Shown: positions 34,083 through 43,709, counted from the stretch's first letter. The stretch is DNA of 43,920 nucleotides from an uncultured Eubacteriales bacterium (GCA_949289095.1 CASEMM010000113.1:1-43920), one strand, 5' to 3'. Translations and numbers: made by a program. The notes: a model not told the origin generated them from the letters alone.

Positions 34083-34691
34083 TCACAGCGCGCCGCTTTC
34101 TTTCAGACGAGAAAGGTGTTTGAAGAACGCCGACTTTCCTATGCCGAGGTTTTTCATCGCCGCGCTGCGGGAAACGCGTCCTTCCGCATATCCGCGCATC
34201 GTGAGTATGAAATCGTCGGAATATACCGTGCGCGGCCGTCCGAATTTCACTCCGCGCGCCTTTGCGAGGCGGATGCCGTCCGCCCGGCGCGTGCGTATTT
34301 TCGTGCGCTCGTTTTCCGCAACGAACGAAAGCACCTGTAAAACGACGTCCGCGATGAATCTTCCCGCGAGCGTGCCGCCGCGCGAGCGCGTGTCGAGAAC
34401 GGGCATGTCTATAACGCAGATGTCCGCGCCTATCGTTTTCGTTATGCGTTTCCATTCGGAGAGTATCTGTTCGTAGTCCCGTCCCAATCTGTCGAGCGAA
34501 AGTATGACGAGGAGATCTCCGCGCCGCAGGACATCGGTCAGCCGTCTGTACTCCGTGCGCTCGAAGTCCTTACCGCTCCGTTTGTCCGAAAAAACGTTTT
34601 TTACGGGTACTCCGAATTTATCGAACGCTTCGAGCTGGCGGGCAAGATTCTGATCCGAACTCGAAACGCGCGCATATCCGTAAATATTCAT
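34083..34691 (-). CDS. Small serine recombinase (resolvase/invertase family)
   Basis: MNIYGYARVSSSDQ (catalytic Ser), SLDRLGRD, ENERTKIRTRRADGIRLAKARGVKFGRP, and a C-terminal HTH. SD GGAGGTG before ATG 34691. Confidence 0.88.
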   Translation of the reverse strand: MNIYGYARVSSSDQNLARQLEAFDKFGVPVKNVFSDKRSGKDFERTEYRRLTDVLRRGDLLVILSLDRLGRDYEQILSEWKRITKTIGADICVIDMPVLDTRSRGGTLAGRFIADVVLQVLSFVAENERTKIRTRRADGIRLAKARGVKFGRPRTVYSDDFILTMRGYAEGRVSRSAAMKNLGIGKSAFFKHLSRLKESGAL

Positions 34692-34741: not shown

Positions 34742-34767
34742 TCCGCGAAAAGTACGCGTTTCGCGGA
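34742..34767. repeat. Inverted repeat, left copy (26 bp, hix-like 12-2-12 site)
   Basis: TCCGCGAAAAGTACGCGTTTCGCGGA. Exact reverse complement of 34869-34894. Confidence 0.95.
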
Positions 34768-34798
34768 ATAATAATTTTGCGAAATTACGGCAATACTC

Positions 34799-34828
34799 TT
34801 GCAAATAATATCATATATGTGTTATACT
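34799..34828 (+). promoter_or_regulatory. Sigma-A promoter TTGCAA-18-TGtTATACT inside the IR-flanked cassette, facing the 34957 operon
   Basis: TTGCAA at 34799-34804, TGT at 34820-34822, TATACT at 34823-34828. A leftward extended -10 TGaTATTAT (34813-34805, minus strand) overlaps it. Confidence 0.6.
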
Positions 34829-34843
34829 GAATACGGAAATCGG

Positions 34844-34960
34844 ATGAAAAAACATGCGCATCATGCCGTCCGCGAAACGCGTACTTTTCGCGGAGACGGA
34901 GAAACGCCCGTTTCATCCGATCGTATCACGAAACGAAACGTCGTCTGGGGAGCAGGATGA
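34844..34960 (+). CDS. 38-codon upstream ORF spanning IR-R, ATGA-coupled to the operon's first gene (coding status uncertain)
   Basis: ATG 34844 ... TGA 34958-34960 overlaps ATG 34957. Peptide MKKHAHHAVRETRTFRGDGETPVSSDRITKRNVVWGAG. No clear SD. Confidence 0.25.
   Translation: MKKHAHHAVRETRTFRGDGETPVSSDRITKRNVVWGAG
34869..34894. repeat. Inverted repeat, right copy (26 bp)
   Basis: TCCGCGAAACGCGTACTTTTCGCGGA. Exact reverse complement of 34742-34767. Confidence 0.95.
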
Positions 34961-36909
34961 GAGAGAATTACGGCAGCATAAAAGAAACGCTCGGTGAATG
35001 CGGTTCCGTAAAAGAATACATAGCGCATAAACTGCATCTTCTCGATGAGTCCGGACGCGACATGCGTGCGCTCTTCGGGCTGATGTTTTCCGAACGCGGC
35101 AACGTCCTCGCTGAAACGACGGACGGTTTTCGCGTGCGCACGATTACGTACGGGGAGTGCGCGGACGGCATAGAGCGCAGATCCGCGCGCCTTGCGTATC
35201 TTCTTTCTTCCGTGCCGCACGGCTCGAAAGTGGGGCTTTGCATGGAAAACTCTCCGGATTGGATAGAGATCTTCTGGAGCATTCTCAAAGCAGGTTACGA
35301 GCCGCTGCTCGTCAACATGCGCGCGGACGACGAAACGATCAACTCCGTTTTTGAGGAATACGGCGTCCGTGCGGCGGTATCGGACGGGCGCGGGCTGAAT
35401 GCGGAGATACTCGTTTCTCCCGCGCAGATAGACGAGGCTCCCGCTCTGCACGGCGCGGAAAACGCGCCGTTCGGCAATGAAGTATATTTCATGTCGTCGG
35501 GAACGTCTTCGCAGCTCAAAATCTGCGGATATACCGGCGAAGAATTTTGTCATCAGATACGCTGCAGCGCGGATATACTGCGCAGAAGCCGCTCGATAAA
35601 ACGGCATTGGCGCGGCAGGCTCAAACTGCTCGCATTCCTGCCGTTCTGTCACATTTTCGGATTCGCGGCGGTGTACGTCTGGTTCTGCTTCTTTTCGCGT
35701 ACGCTCGTGTTTCTCGGAGATATGGCGCCGGATACCATAACGGATACGGTGAGAAAACACGGCGTCACTCACATATTCGCCGTACCGCTGTTCTGGGAAA
35801 AGCTGTACGACGCTGCCGTGGCAAAGATAAAAGAGCGCGGAGCGAAAACGTACCGCAGGTTCTTGCGCGGAATGAAACTCGCCGGAGTGCCGGTCATAGG
35901 CAGGCTGATAAAAAAATTCGCATTCCGCGAAGTGCGCGACAACATATTCGGTGAAAGCGTGATGTTCATGATAAGCGGCGGCGGAAACATATCCGAACGC
36001 GCGATGCGCTTTGCAAACAGGATCGGTTACAGACTGGTCAACGGCTACGGGATGACGGAAACGGGTATAGCGTCCGTGGAACTTTCGGAGCGCGCGTCCG
36101 TGCGGGAGCGGCGTTCGGTGGGCAAGCCCTTCGGCTGCGTGCGCTTTGACATAAGAGACGGAGAACTGTTCGTACGCAGCGACGCGATGGCGCGCGATAT
36201 ATTCGTCGGAGGGGAACGCGTCGCGGCAGACGCCCGCGGCTATGCCACCGGTGACCTTTTCGAATGCGTGCGCGGCGAATATTATATTCTGGGAAGAAAA
36301 GACGATCTGCTCGTCGGTGCGAACGGAGAAAACCTCAATCCCGAACTCATCGAACCTAAACTTGCCGCGGACGGAGTTCGCGGACTGTGTCTCGTGCGAA
36401 GCGGCGGGGGGATCGCGCTGGTCGCTGAAATTTCCCCTTACTGCGGCGGAAACCGCATTTCGAGCATACGTTCGGAAATCGCATCGCGTATCGCCGCGCT
36501 CGGACTGAGCGGTTCGGTCAATGAGATAGTGCTGACGACGAGCCGTCTTATCGGTGAAAAGGATTTCAAAATTTCGCGTTCGCGTGTCGCGTGCAGACTG
36601 GCAGCCGGCGAACTTTGCACGGTAACGGCGGATACCGCCGGCGGCGACGAATCCGATACGCTCATTACCGGGAAACTGCGCGGCATATTTGCGGAAGCGT
36701 TGAACAGGGATGTTGCGGAAATAGGATGCGACGACAATTTCTTCTTCGATCTCGGCGGTAGCAGTCTGGATTATTTTGCCATGGTTTCCGCTGTATGCTC
36801 GGAGTTCGGGATCGGATTTCCGTCGTCGGATACGGCAAGCGCGGCAACCGTGCGCGACGTTGCAAAACTCATAAAGTCATTTTACAGCGAGGAGGATATA
36901 CACAAATGA
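34957..36909 (+). CDS. Adenylate-forming enzyme fused to a carrier-protein domain (acyl-AMP ligase/A-T didomain)
   Basis: ANL motifs MSSGTSSQLK (A3), NGYGMTETG (A5), YATGDL (A7), GRKDDLLVGANGENLNPELIE (A8). C-terminal PP-binding motif FFFDLGGSSLDYF. SD GGGGAG. Confidence 0.85.
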   Translation: MRENYGSIKETLGECGSVKEYIAHKLHLLDESGRDMRALFGLMFSERGNVLAETTDGFRVRTITYGECADGIERRSARLAYLLSSVPHGSKVGLCMENSPDWIEIFWSILKAGYEPLLVNMRADDETINSVFEEYGVRAAVSDGRGLNAEILVSPAQIDEAPALHGAENAPFGNEVYFMSSGTSSQLKICGYTGEEFCHQIRCSADILRRSRSIKRHWRGRLKLLAFLPFCHIFGFAAVYVWFCFFSRTLVFLGDMAPDTITDTVRKHGVTHIFAVPLFWEKLYDAAVAKIKERGAKTYRRFLRGMKLAGVPVIGRLIKKFAFREVRDNIFGESVMFMISGGGNISERAMRFANRIGYRLVNGYGMTETGIASVELSERASVRERRSVGKPFGCVRFDIRDGELFVRSDAMARDIFVGGERVAADARGYATGDLFECVRGEYYILGRKDDLLVGANGENLNPELIEPKLAADGVRGLCLVRSGGGIALVAEISPYCGGNRISSIRSEIASRIAALGLSGSVNEIVLTTSRLIGEKDFKISRSRVACRLAAGELCTVTADTAGGDESDTLITGKLRGIFAEALNRDVAEIGCDDNFFFDLGGSSLDYFAMVSAVCSEFGIGFPSSDTASAATVRDVAKLIKSFYSEEDIHK

Positions 36910-38915
36910 TAGCTAAACCTATGGGACTTTCGGTTTCGGCAGGATCTCTCAACACTAAGTGGAAAGAACTGCTGTTTTCCTTTTCCGGATTCGGCCCCAA
37001 CTTTCTGATGGTTCTTATGGGCGCGTTTTATTCGGATGCGGTTAACCCTGCCGGATTTATGGATAATACGGCCGGGCAGTCCATAGTCGGAACGATCTGT
37101 CTTGTCGTACCCGGTCTTTTTTCCGTGCTTATGCTCGTTGCGAAGGCGTTCGACGGACTTATCGATATCCCGTTTGCGTCGGTAACGGACAATCTTTCCA
37201 CGAGATGGGGCAGGAGACGGCCGCCGATAGCGATATGTTTCGCTCCCATGGTAGTATCTTTCGCCATGTGCTGGCTGCCGGTATTCGGAACTGCGGAGAG
37301 TGCGCAGCTCGGCAATACGATTTGGTTTATTCTGTGGGCGCTCGTGTTCTTCTCGACGTATACGATGTGTCTGATTTCCTTTTACGGCAGTCTGAGCACG
37401 GTATGCAGCGACGAGGCGCAGCGCCTGCGCGTATCCAGTTTCAAGTCGTTCTTCGATACGATTTCGTACTGCATCGTATATGCTCTCGTACCGGTGATAG
37501 TCAGCGCGCTGAACAACGCGTCGGGCGGTTCGCTCGGTATGGATGAATTCGTGTTCATGAGCCTGCCGCTCATGTTCACGATGATCATTCCTCTTTTCAT
37601 GATAAAGGAGGGGGCGAAATACGGTTATCCCGAAAACGAGGGCGCGGAAAAACCGCAGAAAATAACGCTCGGAAAGTCGCTTAAAATCACGTTCAAGAAT
37701 AAGATCTTCCGCAATTGGCTGGTAGTCAACTGCTGTTCGTTCTTCGGGTTGCAGATGTTCCTCGTTTCCATGAACACGATGATAATAGGCGGAATGGGAA
37801 TGAACGCGCTCGAAATGATGATGCTCAATACGTGCGCGTTCGCTCCCGTGCCGATAATGCTGTATCTGTTCCGTAAAATGAAAGAGCGAAGGGGACTGCG
37901 ATTCACGTATCAGACGTGTCTGCTGTCGTTCGCTCTTGCGATACTCGGATTCTTTTTCGGCTCGAAACTCGTTTGCGGGGACAATAAAACGGTGCAGTAC
38001 ATAATAGGCTGCGTGGGCGGCGTGCTCGGAAGCTGGGCGATAGGTTCGTTCTTCATGATGCCGTACATGGTTCCGTCGCAGATATCCGCGGTTGAGGAAA
38101 AACTGCTTAAACGCAATCACAGCGCCATGTATTTCGCGGCGCAGGCGTTTGCGACGAGTATCGTCGGCGCGGTCGCTTCTTACGGAATATACGATATAAT
38201 AAAAAACATATTCTTTACCAAGAGCGGGTCTTTCGTCTGGGCGGAAGCGGTGGCGGAAACGGGCAAGAGCGCGTCGCAGGTAGCGGCGGAAACGCTCGGC
38301 GTCGCAGAAGACGCGGTGTATAATTTCGGAACCACGCTCGTTCCGTTCGTCGTTGCTATCATGTGCATCGTCGGATTTTTGTTTGCGTTCAGAATGCCGA
38401 GGGATTATAATCATAAGGAAGTGGCGATGGCTTTCCTCCGAATGGATCCCACGCTGGATATTTCCGAATATATCAACGAAGAAGAGCCGAAGCCCGAAAA
38501 AGGCGAGATACTGTTCGTTCAGATAGGACTTTCCGTGCTTTCCGGGTTCATATTCGGATTCATATGGCTTGGCTTCATGCTGCGCGCGATAAGAAAGGCG
38601 GCGGGCGAAGCGCTTAAAGTCAGACTCAACCCTCTGTTCTGGGCGCTCGGCTGCTTTATTCCGTTCGTCGGCATATACGTTCTCATAAAGCGTCATTCCG
38701 AACTTGCCGCCGCGGCAGAGAAATACGGGCTTTCGATAGGCAGAAAGACGGCGGCGTTCATCGTTACGGGTATACTGCTGCCCGTGCTTCCCGTGAACGT
38801 GGTCGGTCTGTCGCTCATGCAGCACGATCTGAACAGATACTATGCTGCGGAGAGAGCGGCGGATGCCGCTGCCGCACCCGCAAAAGGAGTCGCAACGGCA
38901 GATGAAGCTGTTTAA
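36906..38915 (+). CDS. GPH/MFS_2-family transporter (MelB/Mfsd2a-like) with extra C-terminal 2-3 TM module
   Basis: GPH signature AKAFDGLIDIPFASVTDNLSTRWGRRRPP in loop 2-3 and about 12 TM segments. The C-terminal ~170 aa (from about nt 38400) form an additional DUF4234-like membrane module. ATGA overlap with the upstream gene. SD GAGGAGGA. Confidence 0.8.
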   Translation: MIAKPMGLSVSAGSLNTKWKELLFSFSGFGPNFLMVLMGAFYSDAVNPAGFMDNTAGQSIVGTICLVVPGLFSVLMLVAKAFDGLIDIPFASVTDNLSTRWGRRRPPIAICFAPMVVSFAMCWLPVFGTAESAQLGNTIWFILWALVFFSTYTMCLISFYGSLSTVCSDEAQRLRVSSFKSFFDTISYCIVYALVPVIVSALNNASGGSLGMDEFVFMSLPLMFTMIIPLFMIKEGAKYGYPENEGAEKPQKITLGKSLKITFKNKIFRNWLVVNCCSFFGLQMFLVSMNTMIIGGMGMNALEMMMLNTCAFAPVPIMLYLFRKMKERRGLRFTYQTCLLSFALAILGFFFGSKLVCGDNKTVQYIIGCVGGVLGSWAIGSFFMMPYMVPSQISAVEEKLLKRNHSAMYFAAQAFATSIVGAVASYGIYDIIKNIFFTKSGSFVWAEAVAETGKSASQVAAETLGVAEDAVYNFGTTLVPFVVAIMCIVGFLFAFRMPRDYNHKEVAMAFLRMDPTLDISEYINEEEPKPEKGEILFVQIGLSVLSGFIFGFIWLGFMLRAIRKAAGEALKVRLNPLFWALGCFIPFVGIYVLIKRHSELAAAAEKYGLSIGRKTAAFIVTGILLPVLPVNVVGLSLMQHDLNRYYAAERAADAAAAPAKGVATADEAV

Positions 38916-39576
38916 CGCCTTCGTAAAAGGAACGGCGTGGCCCGTACAGTGGCTGTGCTTCCGAACGAAAGTGTATTACGCGGACAAAAAGTCGCAGAGC
39001 AGAAAGATAAAAGGTCCGGCTATAATAATTTCCAATCATACGTCTGTATACGATTACGCGGTATTTTTGTTCGTGTTCTGGCGCAGAATGCTGCACTATC
39101 AGATGGCGGAGTGCCTGTTCAGAAAGAAATTGCTCGGCAGGTTTCTTCGTGCGATGGGCGGGATATACGTCGACAGGGACGCGCGCGACTTTTCATTCGT
39201 GCATAAGTCGCTCGGAATTCTTGCGAAAGGCGGAGTCGTCGGCATATTCCCGGAAAGCCGGCTGCCTCTCGAAGGCGAGGAACGGCCTCTGCCGTTCAGA
39301 ACGAGCGCGGCTTATATCGCGCTGGAAAGCGGCGCGCCGGTCATACCCGTATATACGGACGGCAATTACTTCGGACGCGGGCGTGCGCGCGTAATAATAG
39401 GAAAGAGCATTTCGGTGAGAGAGATGTGGAACGATTCGCTCGGTTACAAAGCAAATCTCGAAAACATTTCCGCCGGATTGAGACATGCGGTCATCGCATT
39501 GAAAGATGAATTAGACAGGCAGCGTGAAGAGGAAAGAAGAAGAAAAGAAAAAAAGAAGACGCACGTTGGGACTTAG
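38902..39576 (+). CDS. PlsC-family (lysophospholipid) acyltransferase 1
   Basis: HX4D motif SNHTSVYD and GIFPESR block. Overlaps the transporter 3' end by 14 nt. Ends in a Lys/Arg/Glu-rich tail and TAG. Confidence 0.85.
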   Translation: MKLFNAFVKGTAWPVQWLCFRTKVYYADKKSQSRKIKGPAIIISNHTSVYDYAVFLFVFWRRMLHYQMAECLFRKKLLGRFLRAMGGIYVDRDARDFSFVHKSLGILAKGGVVGIFPESRLPLEGEERPLPFRTSAAYIALESGAPVIPVYTDGNYFGRGRARVIIGKSISVREMWNDSLGYKANLENISAGLRHAVIALKDELDRQREEERRRKEKKKTHVGT

Positions 39577-40210
39577 ATATTTCGTGTATGATTTCGTCAA
39601 ATGGACGGCAGCGCCGTTTCTGATGCTCGCATTGCGTCCGAAAGTTTATTTCGAAAACGAAAACGCGAAGAAACACGTTAAGGGCGGAGCGCTCGTCGTG
39701 TCCAATCATACGGGATATACCGACTGCGTCAAACTGCACTTTTCGCTGTGGTACAGACGGCTGCATTTCGTTGCTACCAAGGATATGTTCGAGGGCAGAC
39801 TTTCGCGGTGGTTTTTCCGCAGACTGCTGTGCATTCCGGTGGATAAGGATAATTTCGAAATGCGTACGTTTGACGAAGTAGGCGAAAGGCTGAACGAAGG
39901 AAGCGTCGTGGTCATATTCCCGGAGGGACGCATTAACCGCGAGGGCGGAATCGAATATTTCAAGGCAGGCGCGGTGCTTATGGCAATGAGGTACAAAGTT
40001 CCCGTCGTGCCGGTCGTTCTCATTCGTCCGTCGGGAAGATTCGACCGCACGCGCATAGCGGTAGGAGAGCCGATAGACGTATCGGGCGGCGGCTGTACGC
40101 TTGCCGGTGTAAACGAGATTGCGCGCATGCTGCGCAAAAAGGAAGAGGAACTTACGGAGCTTGTCGCGCGGCGCCGCCGGAATAAAAACAAACTCAAGGA
40201 AGAAAAATGA
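39524..40210 (+). CDS. PlsC-family acyltransferase 2 (start codon uncertain: GTG 39524, TTG 39566 or GTG 39584; no ATG)
   Basis: HX4D motif SNHTGYTD and IFPEGR block. The N-terminus aligns with acyltransferase 1 from about LRYFVYDFVKW. +1 frame relative to the upstream gene, across a purine/A7 tract. Confidence 0.8.
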   Translation: MKRKEEEKKKRRRTLGLRYFVYDFVKWTAAPFLMLALRPKVYFENENAKKHVKGGALVVSNHTGYTDCVKLHFSLWYRRLHFVATKDMFEGRLSRWFFRRLLCIPVDKDNFEMRTFDEVGERLNEGSVVVIFPEGRINREGGIEYFKAGAVLMAMRYKVPVVPVVLIRPSGRFDRTRIAVGEPIDVSGGGCTLAGVNEIARMLRKKEEELTELVARRRRNKNKLKEEK

Positions 40211-40458
40211 CCCGCGAAGAAATTACAGAAAAACTGAGAAACATACTGGCGTCCGCCGCCGACGACGGAGCGGAAATCGCCGAACGCGCGACGGAGGATT
40301 CCGATCTCGCGGCAGATCTCGGACTGTCGTCCATAGGAGTGCTGCTTATGGTAATCGCGATAGAAGAACGCTTCGGAATAAAATTCGGCAACGTGCGTCT
40401 CGGCAGTTTCAGGACTGTGGGCGACGTAGTCGATTACATTCAGAAATCGACCGCGTAA
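40207..40458 (+). CDS. Acyl carrier protein
   Basis: 83 aa, with phosphopantetheine attachment motif DLGLSSIG. ATGA overlap upstream and TAATG overlap downstream. Confidence 0.85.
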   Translation: MTREEITEKLRNILASAADDGAEIAERATEDSDLAADLGLSSIGVLLMVIAIEERFGIKFGNVRLGSFRTVGDVVDYIQKSTA

Positions 40459-41483
40459 TGAAGTGGACGTTCGATACGCCCGAAGCGGGCGATATGGTGC
40501 GCGTGCGCGTCGGCTCGATTTATCATTACGGAATATTTGTTTCGGATGAGGAGATAATACAGTTCGGTCCGCCGCCGTCGGACGTGCGCCGGCTCGCGTC
40601 CGGAGAAGACATACGCGTGATCAGTACGGATGCGGACGGTTTCCGTTCGGGCGGGTTCATCGAAACGGGCAGACCGGGATTCTCCGAGCGTGTGCGTGCG
40701 CGCCGCCGCGCTGCCGTCGTTGCATATGCCCGTTCGCAGCTCGGCAGAGGCGGTTACGATATCCTTCGCAACAATTGCGAACATTTCGCGCGCGAATGCC
40801 TGTTCGGCAAAGGAGAATGCGCGGTCGTGGATAAAGCGCGCATAGCGGCGCGCGCAATGCCGTCCGCGGACGTATATCTGTCCGAAGTGTCCGGTTCTGA
40901 AACGACGCGCGTTTATCCTCCGGACAGAGAGAGCGAAATAAGAAGCGCGTGCAATGCCGCCGTCGCCGCGCAAAAACGCACGGCATGGAGACTGCTTTGC
41001 GTCGCAATGAAAAATTCAATGGGGATCGAACCGGAAAAGGCGGAATTCCGCCGTACGGAAAACGGAAAGTGGCTCTGCGACAAGTGCATGTTCTCGCTGA
41101 CCCATACGGCGGGATATGCGGCTGCCGCGGTATCGCGTTTTCCCGTCGGCGTCGATATGGAAGAGTATTCCCGCACGCGCGATCTGCGGAAACTGTACGG
41201 GAAAATCGTTTGTCCGGAAGAACGGCTCGTATACGGAGAAGACCCCTCGGATACGGACGTGCTTCGTTTGTGGACGCGAAAAGAAAGTATTTTCAAACGG
41301 TACGGAGACGGCGGTTTTGAACCGTTGTCCGTTAATACCGAAAAGGAAACGGCGGTTACGCGGATACCGGTTAAATATCCGCTTGTGATTTCCGTATCGG
41401 CGGAACGTCTCGCTTACTTTTCGATATACGAAGTGTCTGCGGACGGAAAGGTCATAAGTCCGCTTGCGGGCAGAAACGCATAA
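40458..41483 (+). CDS. Fusion protein: N-terminal LRAT/NlpC-P60-type acyltransferase-thiol hydrolase domain plus C-terminal Sfp-type 4'-phosphopantetheinyl transferase
   Basis: LRAT His box GSIYHYGIFV and catalytic Cys box NNCEHFARE. PPTase motifs FSLTHTAGYAAAAV, VGVDMEE, and LWTRKESIFKRYG. Confidence 0.8.
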   Translation: MKWTFDTPEAGDMVRVRVGSIYHYGIFVSDEEIIQFGPPPSDVRRLASGEDIRVISTDADGFRSGGFIETGRPGFSERVRARRRAAVVAYARSQLGRGGYDILRNNCEHFARECLFGKGECAVVDKARIAARAMPSADVYLSEVSGSETTRVYPPDRESEIRSACNAAVAAQKRTAWRLLCVAMKNSMGIEPEKAEFRRTENGKWLCDKCMFSLTHTAGYAAAAVSRFPVGVDMEEYSRTRDLRKLYGKIVCPEERLVYGEDPSDTDVLRLWTRKESIFKRYGDGGFEPLSVNTEKETAVTRIPVKYPLVISVSAERLAYFSIYEVSADGKVISPLAGRNA

Positions 41484-41497
41484 AGGAGGAGAACAGT

Positions 41498-42061
41498 ATG
41501 TATTGCAAATTCTGCGGTAAGTACACGAACGAAACCGACGCGGTGTGCGCCGAGTGCAAGAGCAGAACGGCAAAGAACGCCGCCCCGCAGGGCGGCATTC
41601 AGGGACAGCCGCCGTACGGGGGCGCGGGATATAACGGAGGAAACGTTTATCGCGGTATGACCCCGCCCGCACCCGCGCCGCAGCCCGGGTCGCCTTACGG
41701 AAAACTGTACGGATTCGGTCCCGCGCTCGCATCGGCGATATGCGGTTGCATAGGAGGTCTTGTTCTTTTCTACGGCTGGCTCTCCATACTCGTGTTTCTG
41801 CCGGCGTTCGTTTTAAGCTCCGATTCGCTTCTGACATGGCGGATCACATACATTTTCATGATAGCGGTGGGGTTCATCCTCGGCGTGATCGCGCTCGTGC
41901 TCGGGATTAAGGGCATGCGCAGCTTCTTTGTCGCCAAGCGCAACGGCGGGAAGGCGATAGCCGCGCTCGTGCTCGGAATAGTGGGGCTGGTATCCGGGGC
42001 GTTGACAATGCTTCTGGGACTGATCGTGCTCATATCCGTCGTGCCCGGAATGTTCGTATAG
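41498..42061 (+). CDS. Zinc-ribbon membrane protein (CxxC-CxxC, Gly/Pro/Gln linker, ~4 TM)
   Basis: MYCKFCGKYTNETDAVCAECK, G/P/Q-rich spacer, then hydrophobic helices. SD AAAGGAGGAG. 14 nt after the upstream stop. Confidence 0.7.
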   Translation: MYCKFCGKYTNETDAVCAECKSRTAKNAAPQGGIQGQPPYGGAGYNGGNVYRGMTPPAPAPQPGSPYGKLYGFGPALASAICGCIGGLVLFYGWLSILVFLPAFVLSSDSLLTWRITYIFMIAVGFILGVIALVLGIKGMRSFFVAKRNGGKAIAALVLGIVGLVSGALTMLLGLIVLISVVPGMFV

Positions 42062-42092: not shown

Positions 42093-42120
42093 CGCGCGGG
42101 AGACAAATGTCTCCCGCGCG
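42093..42120. terminator. GC-rich hairpin between convergent genes (no U tract)
   Basis: CGCGCGGGAGA-caaatg-TCTCCCGCGCG. 11-bp stem, 42093-42103/42110-42120. Confidence 0.45.
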
Positions 42121-42198: not shown

Positions 42199-42987
42199 TT
42201 ATTCCGCTCCGAAGAGCAGCTTTTCGGCATTTGCGTGCAATATCATATCGAGAGTGCGTTTGTCACGCACGGCAGAGCTGACGAAGTCGAGGTTGGCGCG
42301 TATGTCCCTCCACGGCGAGTCGCTGCCGAACAGCAGTCTGTCTGCGGGGAGAACGGAGAGAACGTGGCAGAACCGTTCGGGAGTGAATTGCGATGACGCG
42401 AGCGAAAGGTCGGCGTATGCTCCGCAGCCGGCAAGTACGGCAAGTTCCTTATCCGTTATTCCGTAACCGCCCGTATGCGCGAGTACCGTGCGTTCGGGGC
42501 AGAGAATATCGAACAGCGGCAGAAAGTCCGAGGGGTAAACGTCGAGATCCGTAGGCGTGCGCCCGGGTCTGCCGCAGTGGAACACAGCCGTTATTCCCGC
42601 GTCGCGCACCGCGCGCCACAGCGGAACGAGACAGGGATCGCCGAGAACGAAGTTCTGCATGTTCGGGTGAAATTTTACGCCTTTAAGCCCTTTGTCCGCA
42701 TATTCGCGCACGAGCGCGGGAGCGTTTTCCGAATGCGGGTGAACTGAAAAAAAGGGAATTATCCCGTTCCCGTGAGTGTTCAGCACGAAATCGTTGACGG
42801 TGCGCTCGTGCCCCGGTCTGCCGCACACGGGCAGCGCGACTGCGAGTTTGACGCCCGCGCCGCGCATAGCGTTTTCCAGCCCGGCAAGCGTGCCGTCCGC
42901 ATCGCCCTCGACGACGTCGTCCACGCCGCGCAGCGCGCGCCGTGCGAGACAGGGCGGGTAATAGTGAGTGTGAAAATCTATTGTCAT
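42199..42987 (-). CDS. Amidohydrolase_2-type metal-dependent TIM-barrel hydrolase
   Basis: MTIDFHTHYYPP metal-binding start, VKFHPNMQ, VFHCG, and a C-terminal FGSDSPW motif. Confidence 0.75.
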   Translation of the reverse strand: MTIDFHTHYYPPCLARRALRGVDDVVEGDADGTLAGLENAMRGAGVKLAVALPVCGRPGHERTVNDFVLNTHGNGIIPFFSVHPHSENAPALVREYADKGLKGVKFHPNMQNFVLGDPCLVPLWRAVRDAGITAVFHCGRPGRTPTDLDVYPSDFLPLFDILCPERTVLAHTGGYGITDKELAVLAGCGAYADLSLASSQFTPERFCHVLSVLPADRLLFGSDSPWRDIRANLDFVSSAVRDKRTLDMILHANAEKLLFGAE

Positions 42988-42995
42988 CACGCAAA

Positions 42996-43024
42996 AGATT
43001 AACATAAATTTCTTCCGCGGTCAA
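42996..43024 (-). promoter_or_regulatory. Promoter TTGACC-17-TGtTAATCT ending 8 nt before ATG 42987 (possibly leaderless)
   Basis: On the minus strand: TTGACC (43024-43019), 17 nt, TAATCT (43001-42996). No SD. Confidence 0.45.
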
Positions 43025-43082: not shown

Positions 43083-43709
43083 ATGAAAGTACTTATGATC
43101 AACGGAAGTCCTCACAGGGACGGTTGCACGAACGCCGCGCTGACCGTGATAGGGAATACTCTTGCAGAACAGGGTATAGACAGCGAGATCGTGCATATAG
43201 GCGGTGCGCGTATAAGCGGGTGCGTTGCGTGCGGGTATTGCCGCAAAAGCGGCTCGCGGCGCTGCGCGATAAAGGACGATATCGTCAACGAAGTGATAGA
43301 AAAGCTGGACGCCGCGGACGGACTTGTCGTCGGTACGCCGGTATATTACGCGTCGCCGAACGGCAGCATCGTAAGTCTGCTTGACCGCGTGTTTTATGCT
43401 CACGGCGGCTATCCGCACAAGCCCGCGGCGGCGATAGCGTCCGCACGCAGAGCGGGGACCGTCGTCAGCGTGGACGAGCTGAACAAGTATTTTACGATAA
43501 GTCAGATGCCCATCGTCTCTTCCACCTATTGGAACGAGGTGCACGGTTCGCGGGCGGAGGACGTGCAGAAAGACGAAGAGGGCGTTGCGACCATGCGCAA
43601 TCTCGCGCTTAACATGGCGTGGATGCTCAGATGTATAGAGTGCGGCAGGGCAAACGGCATATTGCCGCCCGAAGTAGGCAGCGTTCCGAGGACGAATTTT
43701 ATCAGATGA
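43083..43709 (+). CDS. Flavodoxin-like FMN reductase / iron-sulfur flavoprotein family
   Basis: MKVLMINGSPHRDGCTN, Cys cluster CVACGYCRKSGSRRC, and GTPVYYASPNG. Confidence 0.8.
   Translation: MKVLMINGSPHRDGCTNAALTVIGNTLAEQGIDSEIVHIGGARISGCVACGYCRKSGSRRCAIKDDIVNEVIEKLDAADGLVVGTPVYYASPNGSIVSLLDRVFYAHGGYPHKPAAAIASARRAGTVVSVDELNKYFTISQMPIVSSTYWNEVHGSRAEDVQKDEEGVATMRNLALNMAWMLRCIECGRANGILPPEVGSVPRTNFIR

Follow-up and report, generated by a model that had tools for sequence, protein, structure and literature searches.

A phase-variable operon of an uncultured Eubacteriales bacterium is a reduced form of a widespread lipid-related gene cluster of Clostridia

Introduction

What might a bacterium do with a single operon that joins an adenylating enzyme, a transporter, two acyltransferases, a carrier protein and an LRAT domain fused to a phosphopantetheinyl transferase (PPTase)? 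Seven such genes (g1 to g7) lie on the plus strand at positions 34957–42061 of a DNA stretch from an uncultured Eubacteriales bacterium (GCA_949289095.1 CASEMM010000113.1:1-43920). This whole stretch of 43,920 nucleotides (nt; 44 kb) is called the window below. An initial annotation, made from the sequence alone, described the seven genes as a self-contained, possibly phase-variable system for lipid re-acylation and did not recognise the combination as a described pathway. The question bears on a poorly charted subject, as the uptake of dietary and host lipids into the membranes of Gram-positive gut and rumen anaerobes is largely unexplored (PMC12394162).

Here, we report that the cassette is a lineage-specific, phase-variable and reduced form of a widespread, uncharacterised, lipid-related operon of about 11 genes in Clostridia. 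The system is built wholly from known families. In agreement with the initial annotation, we found no description of this cluster in the open-access literature that was searched.

Results

The list of open reading frames showed seven consecutive genes whose stop and start codons overlap or almost touch, and the junctions were as initially described. The g1 stop and the g2 start share an ATGA at 36906–36909. Gene g3 begins at an ATG at 38902, behind an AAAGGAG ribosome-binding site, and its first 14 nt lie within the end of g2 (a gene caller picked 38863 instead; the length given below is counted from ATG 38902). A second ATGA, at 40207–40210, is common to g4 and g5, and TAATG at 40456–40460 joins g5 to g6. 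Between g6 and g7 there is a 14-nt gap containing AAAGGAGGA, just ahead of the g7 start. Only the g3/g4 junction was ambiguous: g4 could start at GTG 39524, with a 53-nt overlap, or at GTG 39584, with a 7-nt gap, and we favoured the latter because homologues are about 205 amino acids (aa) long. Genes g1 to g7 are packed tightly enough for a single transcript.

We surveyed the gene neighbourhood in other genomes. At least 824 full-length homologues of g1 were found at about 45% identity, either unnamed or labelled 'AMP-binding protein', and a scan of a one-genome-per-species collection located g1 relatives at 550 loci. The best 80 of these 550 loci all belonged to Clostridia, namely Oscillospiraceae, Ruminococcus, Lachnospiraceae including Butyrivibrio, and Christensenellaceae. 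They came from rumen, hindgut and human gut and included two cultured Ruminococcus strains with complete genomes (JE7B6, NZ_CP162391.1, and JL13D9, NZ_CP162392.1). Gene order, mapped with the proteins of the window and of one further locus (L053), followed a canonical arrangement: the adenylating enzyme-carrier fusion, two PlsC-type acyltransferases (PlsC_a and PlsC_b), a second, free-standing acyl ligase, an acyl carrier protein (ACP), LRAT with or without a fused PPTase, an alpha/beta hydrolase, DegV/FakB, a short MFS_2 transporter, FakA, and a second alpha/beta hydrolase.

Core genes were counted at the 64 loci whose sequence runs on for at least 7.5 kb from the g1 start. PlsC_a followed g1 at all of them (64/64), and PlsC_b (62/64), LRAT (59/64), ACP (58/64) and the second ligase (55/64) were nearly as constant, so that the synteny expected for the annotated cassette held up across genomes. 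The PPTase was present at 41/64 loci, and a long MFS_2 gene adjoined g1, as in the window, at 8/64. For the distal genes, counted at the 56 loci that extend at least 11.8 kb beyond the g1 start, DegV/FakB and FakA were each found at 46/56, the two alpha/beta hydrolases at 44/56 and 45/56, and the short MFS_2, between DegV/FakB and FakA, at 26/56. Each of the hydrolases of the fuller operon has one N-terminal transmembrane (TM) anchor by hydropathy, and among solved structures they come closest to esterases, lipases and a monoacylglycerol lipase.

The second ligase, FakA, DegV and the hydrolases were searched for across the 44-kb window, and none was found. The cassette is thus not 'self-contained', as it had been called, but a reduced form of the operon of about 11 genes, lacking the second ligase, FakA/FakB and both hydrolases. 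Its closest relative in the collection (L002, 9998–16768) is smaller still: it consists of g1, the long MFS_2 gene, two PlsC genes, a stand-alone LRAT of 143 aa and two zinc-ribbon membrane proteins, with neither ACP nor PPTase, and it defines the minimal core. From the locus counts and this reduced operon, we take the constant core to be the ligase-carrier gene and two PlsC genes, usually with LRAT. The LRAT-PPTase fusion named in the initial annotation is present in g6 but is not a fixed part of the system, as LRAT stands alone at many loci and is absent at a few, and the L002 operon does without ACP and PPTase. At two further loci (L084, 7151–9418, and L085), the ligase-carrier gene is missing and a 755-aa protein with HTH_3, Cupin_2 and AMP-binding domains is encoded about 580 nt upstream of the long MFS_2 gene; by its domains, this protein may be a regulator-ligase fusion.

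The region upstream of g1 had been annotated as a candidate invertible promoter, and comparison with three further assemblies of the same lineage (L001, L082 and L083) bore this out. Two perfect 26-nt inverted repeats, presumed recombination sites, lie at 34742–34767 and 34869–34894; they are 100% complementary to each other and flank a segment of 101 nt (34768–34868). Each arm consists of two 12-nt half-sites, 10/12 alike, around a central AC. Two half-sites around a 2-nt core are the layout of hix-type sites. A consensus scan found a single promoter-like match between the repeats, TTGCAA-18-TATACT with a TG upstream of the second hexamer (34799–34828, plus strand), which faces g1 and thus has the ON orientation. 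On the minus strand, 51 nt from the left repeat, lies the gene of a small serine recombinase of 202 aa (34083–34691; Pfam Resolvase, 88.9 bits), which matched XisF and Mpi-type invertases weakly in NCBIfam. From its position and family, this recombinase presumably acts as the invertase on the promoter switch.

All three assemblies share the recombinase and repeat arrangement of the window, with the right repeat conserved. In L001 and L083, the segment is oriented as in the window. In L082, a strain whose g1 protein is 98% identical, the segment (L082:9792-9943, corresponding to window 34742–34894) is the reverse complement: 95/101 positions match in this orientation and 56/101 in the direct one. 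The L082 flanks are collinear with those of the window (intergenic parts 47/50 and 56/62, recombinase gene 581/609, g1 890/900). As the segment is flipped while its flanks are collinear, it inverts in nature. Based on the predicted promoter, the window would be ON and L082 OFF, with the L082 promoter facing the recombinase gene.

Upstream of the g1 homologues at other loci, neither this serine recombinase nor an inverted repeat of at least 14 nt was found. The switch is therefore lineage-specific, and we rejected phase variation as a general property of the family. One locus has a gene for a tyrosine recombinase (Phage_integrase; L088:6171-7085) two genes upstream of its g1 homologue. No inverted repeat of at least 14 nt was found there, and the gene may belong to a mobile element or to a further switch.

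The domain calls of the initial annotation all passed the curated Pfam cut-offs (scores are given here as bits/cut-off). Gene g1 (34957–36909, plus strand) encodes a carboxylic-acid adenylating enzyme of 650 aa fused to a carrier domain (AMP-binding 124.3/29.9; PP-binding 47.4/20.8). The g1 sequence alone had no match in the PDB at 1e-10, and a family profile was used instead. Its best matches were MenE (7.5e-25), 4-chlorobenzoate-CoA ligase and FadD13, with DltA a weak match (3.5e-10). Against the amino-acid adenylation model TIGR01733 of NCBIfam, g1 scored 57.6 bits, far under the cut-off of 317.4. Among 22 homologues, the SSGT near position 180 is nearly invariant, with S181 invariant, as are G363, G365, E368, G446, R447, D449, D450, K538 and the carrier serine S603. 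Thus, the enzyme retains both its carrier serine and the core motifs typical of adenylate formation. Because of the neighbouring genes, the acid that it activates is most plausibly a fatty acid.

Genes g3 (38902–39576) and g4 (39584–40210, with the alternative GTG start at 39524), both on the plus strand, encode PlsC-type (LPLAT) acyltransferases of 224 and 208 aa, each with a short N-terminus. They scored 72.2/23 and 98.8/23 against the Pfam Acyltransferase family (PF01553), and their HX4D motifs read NHTSVYD and NHTGYTD, respectively. The top NCBIfam match of g4 was the acyltransferase part of acyl-[ACP]--phospholipid O-acyltransferase PRK08633, a model of the LplT-Aas-type fusion (E 1e-22), and its sole solved relative by sequence was the PlsC of Thermotoga (PDB 5kym, E 1e-7). 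Gene g5 (40207–40458, plus strand) encodes a free-standing ACP of 83 aa (PP-binding 36.8/20.8) that is 39% identical to the carrier domain of g1; it matched NCBIfam ACP models below their cut-offs.

Gene g6 (40458–41483, plus strand) encodes a protein of 341 aa that combines an LRAT/PLAAT-like thiol acyltransferase domain (LRAT, PF04970, 55.9/24.3) with an Sfp-type PPTase (ACPS, PF01648, 35.8/25). The PLAAT/LRAT fold is a circularly permuted NlpC/P60 fold. Among 24 homologues, H23 and NNCEHF (105–110) in the LRAT half are invariant and Q35 is nearly so; G231, D233, W272, E276 and K280 in the PPTase half are invariant. The latter half has the motifs (V/I)G(V/I)D and W-x2-K-E-x3-K and the pseudo-dimeric fold of Sfp-type (group II) PPTases. 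In an AlphaFold2 (AF2) model (predicted local distance difference test, pLDDT, 87.6), the N-terminal domain resembled PLAAT2/3/4 with target-normalised TM-scores of 0.71–0.81 in Foldseek, and the C-terminal domain matched AASDHPPT, Sfp and PptT best. By phmmer, g6 matched PLAAT4 at E 7e-5. Hydropathy revealed no hydrophobic segment in g6, hence no C-terminal membrane anchor; the C-terminus is the PPTase domain.

In a library clustered at 50% identity, g6 had 685 representatives at E <= 1e-30, and about 100 of the best 150 matches listed spanned both domains. Judged from these domains, the LRAT-PPTase fusion would be an unstudied bifunctional enzyme. One relative of 1125 aa (P0492) contains nine LRAT-like stretches and looks like a multi-LRAT repeat protein.

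Gene g2 (36906–38915, plus strand) encodes a transporter of 669 aa of the MFS_2 (GPH) family with a C-terminal three-TM extension. It scored 100.6/27 against MFS_2 (PF13347), more than against MFS_1 (46.6 bits), and in NCBIfam it matched only GPH, MelB and glucuronide transporter models; no LplT model was matched there at E <= 0.001. As it reached only 54.3 bits against TIGR00792 (gph; cut-off 231), g2 is a divergent GPH member. The AF2 model (pLDDT 80.7) resembled MelB and MFSD2A most, as the initial annotation had proposed: these two accounted for the top eight Foldseek matches in the PDB (E 4e-10 to 4e-9, against about 1e-7 for other MFS proteins), with target-normalised TM-scores of 0.69–0.81, and identity in the structural alignments was only 11–15%.

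The motif K-x-F-D-G-x-I-D-x-P in TM2 is invariant in the aligned long-form homologues, and its D83 and D87 are invariant among 24 homologues; its Asp-x3-Asp part also occurs in the single short-form MFS_2 looked at (from L053). These two aspartates would correspond to the cation-site residues of the MFS_2/GPH family. By hydropathy, the MFS core comprises about 12 helices and the extension a further three. The extension, which comprises the C-terminal 200 aa (38316–38912), matched DUF5684 weakly and is kept across the long-form family. This long MFS_2 family gave 1296 matches at 55–74% identity, mostly within this cluster and occasionally alone. Its genomic association with FakA/FakB and PlsC genes suggests a lysolipid as the putative substrate of g2.

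The last gene, g7 (41498–42061, plus strand), encodes a zinc-ribbon protein of 187 aa with three TM helices by hydropathy. Its DUF4190 match is sub-threshold (16.9/35), as is its zinc-ribbon match. Similar zinc-ribbon membrane proteins follow the cluster directly in L002 (15625–16768), L003, L084 (17301–18407) and L085, and g7-like proteins recur only in the sub-lineage with the long MFS_2. As they were found at only 3/56 loci, g7 was rejected as a core component; it is not a conserved member of the cluster but an accessory of this sub-lineage.

Beyond g7, a GC-rich hairpin at 42093–42120 (12-bp stem and 4-nt loop in the sequence and predicted fold), located between the convergent g7 and amidohydrolase genes, likely marks the end of the operon. 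It has no T-tract, and we therefore call it only terminator-like. The whole window matched no RNA family in Rfam, and thus no riboswitch was assigned to the leader. Further downstream are an Amidohydro_2 protein (42199–43005, minus strand) and an FMN reductase/flavodoxin-like protein (43083–43709, plus strand). In L086 and L087, a long MFS_2 gene that stands alone is likewise adjoined by an FMN_red gene, perhaps by coincidence.

Discussion

What, then, could this operon do? The reading that we favour, and to which we give about even chances, is that of an accessory system, switched by DNA inversion, that salvages outside lipids and re-attaches fatty acids via its own acyl carriers. The domains, catalytic motifs, gene order and inversion are described above; the chemistry would run as follows. 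The Sfp-type half of g6 would attach phosphopantetheine to the g1 carrier domain and to the ACP g5, and so prime both. As a cation-coupled MFS_2 symporter, g2 would deliver an amphipathic lipid (a lysolipid, monoacylglycerol or free fatty acid) to the membrane's cytoplasmic side. The substrate of g1 would be a free carboxylic acid, most probably a fatty acid, which the enzyme would adenylate and load as a thioester onto its own carrier domain. The Aas-like g3 and g4 would then pass acyl groups from the carriers to the hydroxyls of lysolipid or glycerol-phosphate acceptors, serving two positions or two acceptor classes. Finally, the LRAT/PLAAT half of g6 would form an acyl-cysteine and either shuttle chains between phospholipids and carrier thiols or clear misloaded carriers. 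We name the carriers as partners of the LRAT half because it is fused to a carrier-binding PPTase. In most other species, the same core would work beside the second ligase, FakA/FakB and two membrane-anchored lipase-like hydrolases.

The neighbours in the fuller operon, FakA, DegV/FakB and the lipase-like hydrolases, support a function related to fatty acids or lipids. The lipid theme of the initial annotation was therefore strengthened, and the operon is not an orthologue of the LplT/Aas system with which that annotation compared it. Several points weigh against salvage and re-acylation. For g1 and for the second ligase alike, the resemblance to MenE and aryl-CoA ligases is as strong as that to fatty-acid ligases, and the activated acid is therefore uncertain. 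The g2 sequence, alone or as a profile, had no meaningful match in the PDB and thus no solved transporter as a relative by sequence, and its modelled fold cannot separate sugar from lysolipid as the substrate. The ligase gene usually found immediately upstream of the ACP gene, here g5, is missing from the window, and there are lineages that manage without LRAT, without PPTase or without ACP. Secondary metabolism, too, typically employs Sfp-type PPTases and adenylation-carrier fusions. All the chemical steps proposed here are deduced wholly from family membership and neighbouring genes.

The link to secondary metabolism leads to a different account, in which an NRPS-like (non-ribosomal peptide synthetase-like) natural-product cluster uses dedicated carriers to assemble a specialised product, either an acylated small molecule or a signalling lipid, to be exported by the MFS protein. 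An adenylation-carrier didomain, a separate ACP and an Sfp-type PPTase are the usual toolkit for this, some databases label g1 homologues as non-ribosomal peptide synthetases, aryl-acid ligases are among the nearest solved relatives of g1, and the accessory genes differ between lineages. We nevertheless consider this account unlikely. No condensation, thioesterase, reductase or ketosynthase domain is encoded in the window operon or in the fuller operon of L053, the acyltransferases are of the PlsC/Aas type, and the conserved partners are FakA, DegV/FakB and lipase-like hydrolases. The transporter is a member of the GPH symporter family that retains the paired cation-site aspartates, and the known members of this family are importers. 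An NRPS assembly line in the strict sense was rejected on domain content and on the low score of g1 against TIGR01733. The switch raises another thought, as invertible promoters typically govern surface structures: the operon might acylate a surface polymer, a glycolipid anchor or lipoproteins, in a Dlt- or LnsAB-like manner, and so make the surface phase-variable. The pairing of ligase and carrier recalls DltA/DltC, LnsA offers a bacterial precedent of the NlpC/P60-LRAT type that N-acylates lipoproteins, and g7 and the g2 extension are membrane proteins without an assigned role. Such envelope modification is quite unlikely, however, since neither the window operon nor the fuller operon in L053 has an MBOAT (DltB) or DltD-like gene, and the g1 profile matches DltA far more weakly than MenE/FadD13. 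Hydropathy showed no signal peptide or membrane-spanning segment in g1, g3 and g6, which are therefore predicted to be cytoplasmic or peripheral, and one borderline hydrophobic stretch in g4. Moreover, the switch was found in this lineage alone and not family-wide. Dlt-like D-alanylation itself was rejected, given the missing MBOAT and DltD domains and the weak DltA match.

The breadth of the family, with 550 loci in a one-genome-per-species collection, would also suit a housekeeping role: in Clostridia that need outside fatty acids, the ligase and carrier would replace the acyl-ACP from type II fatty-acid synthesis (FASII), and FakAB would feed PlsY. At 46/56 loci, the fuller operon includes FakA and FakB, the cluster encodes its own PPTase, and the incorporation of outside fatty acids by rumen bacteria is largely unexplored (PMC12394162), which leaves room for such a route. 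Yet an ON/OFF switch and a natural OFF variant are hard to square with an essential function, the window form has neither FakA nor FakB, and ACP, PPTase, LRAT and the second ligase have each been lost in some lineages, so we regard a housekeeping phospholipid route as very unlikely.

Returning to accessory lipid salvage, a bolder and more tentative extension, which is possible but in our view doubtful, is that the family represents the missing Gram-positive counterpart of LplT/Aas. Next to FakAB and the classical acyl-ACP synthetase, it would give gut and rumen Clostridia a third, carrier-based route for the uptake of lysolipids and fatty acids from the host or the diet. In this extension, an MFSD2A-like importer would take up lysolipids, dedicated carriers would keep scavenged chains apart from fatty-acid synthesis, and the LRAT-PPTase would shuffle chains between phospholipids and carriers; in this lineage, DNA inversion would switch membrane lipid remodelling on and off. 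The conserved operon at 550 loci provides a concrete gene set in which an MFSD2A-like transporter is combined with Aas-like acyltransferases, dedicated carriers and FakA/FakB. Control of such an operon by an invertible promoter would carry phase variation beyond surface polymers, into membrane lipid metabolism, and this could bear on the tolerance of toxic fatty acids, on sensitivity to phages and antimicrobials, and on host recognition of bacterial lipids.

Among described systems, the closest is LplT/Aas, in which an MFS transporter, an acyltransferase and an acyl-ACP synthetase act in lysolipid repair by a described mechanism (PMC11416262). LplT-Aas has been identified in Gram-negative bacteria only, and streptococci are known to take up and acylate lysolipids (PMC11416262). 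The window operon likewise has an MFS transporter gene abutting an acyltransferase gene, PlsC-type acyltransferases with a short N-terminus and the HX4D feature of PlsC/LPLAT enzymes, and an adenylate-forming enzyme that would provide an acyl-carrier thioester as the donor; g4 even matches the acyltransferase part of PRK08633 best. The operon is nonetheless not a member of this system, because its transporter is of a different MFS family, MFS_2/GPH, and not an LplT-type flippase, and because its enzymes are unfused. Instead of a bifunctional Aas, g3 and g4 are separate proteins of 208–224 aa and the AMP-binding domain is fused to a carrier. The window further differs in having this own-carrier ligase, a second dedicated ACP, a cluster-encoded Sfp-type PPTase, two acyltransferases and an LRAT domain, and the fuller operon adds FakA/FakB and two hydrolases.

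The individual parts show similar mixtures of likeness and difference. With MelB and MFSD2A, the eukaryotic sodium-dependent lysophosphatidylcholine transporter, g2 shares a score above the MFS_2 cut-off, the best structural matches and the paired TM2 aspartates, but it differs in its low identity of 11–15% and its extra three-TM C-terminal module. The N-terminal half of g6 has the fold, the invariant histidine and the NCEHF cysteine of the PLAAT/HRASLS and LRAT enzymes. These enzymes transfer phospholipid acyl chains via an acyl-cysteine intermediate (see also PMC4624172), and LnsA, a bacterial NlpC/P60-LRAT-type enzyme, is reported to N-acylate lipoproteins of Staphylococcus aureus (PMC7387801). 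Unlike PLAAT/LRAT enzymes, g6 has a fused PPTase in place of a C-terminal membrane anchor, Gln instead of His as the third triad residue, and a genomic context of carrier proteins. The FakA/FakB kinase pathway of Firmicutes, which also activates outside fatty acids, is represented in the fuller operon by FakA and DegV/FakB (46/56 loci); the window form has neither, and the cluster core would activate by adenylation onto carriers and not as acyl-phosphate. Finally, the switch resembles those of Hin and Gin in that a small serine recombinase gene adjoins two 26-nt inverted sites, with 12-nt half-sites and a 2-nt core, that flank a promoter, and in that both orientations are seen in nature. It departs from them in its very short segment of about 100 nt, in the position of the recombinase gene outside this segment, and in its control of what we read as a lipid-metabolism operon, in place of flagellin, tail fibres or capsule.

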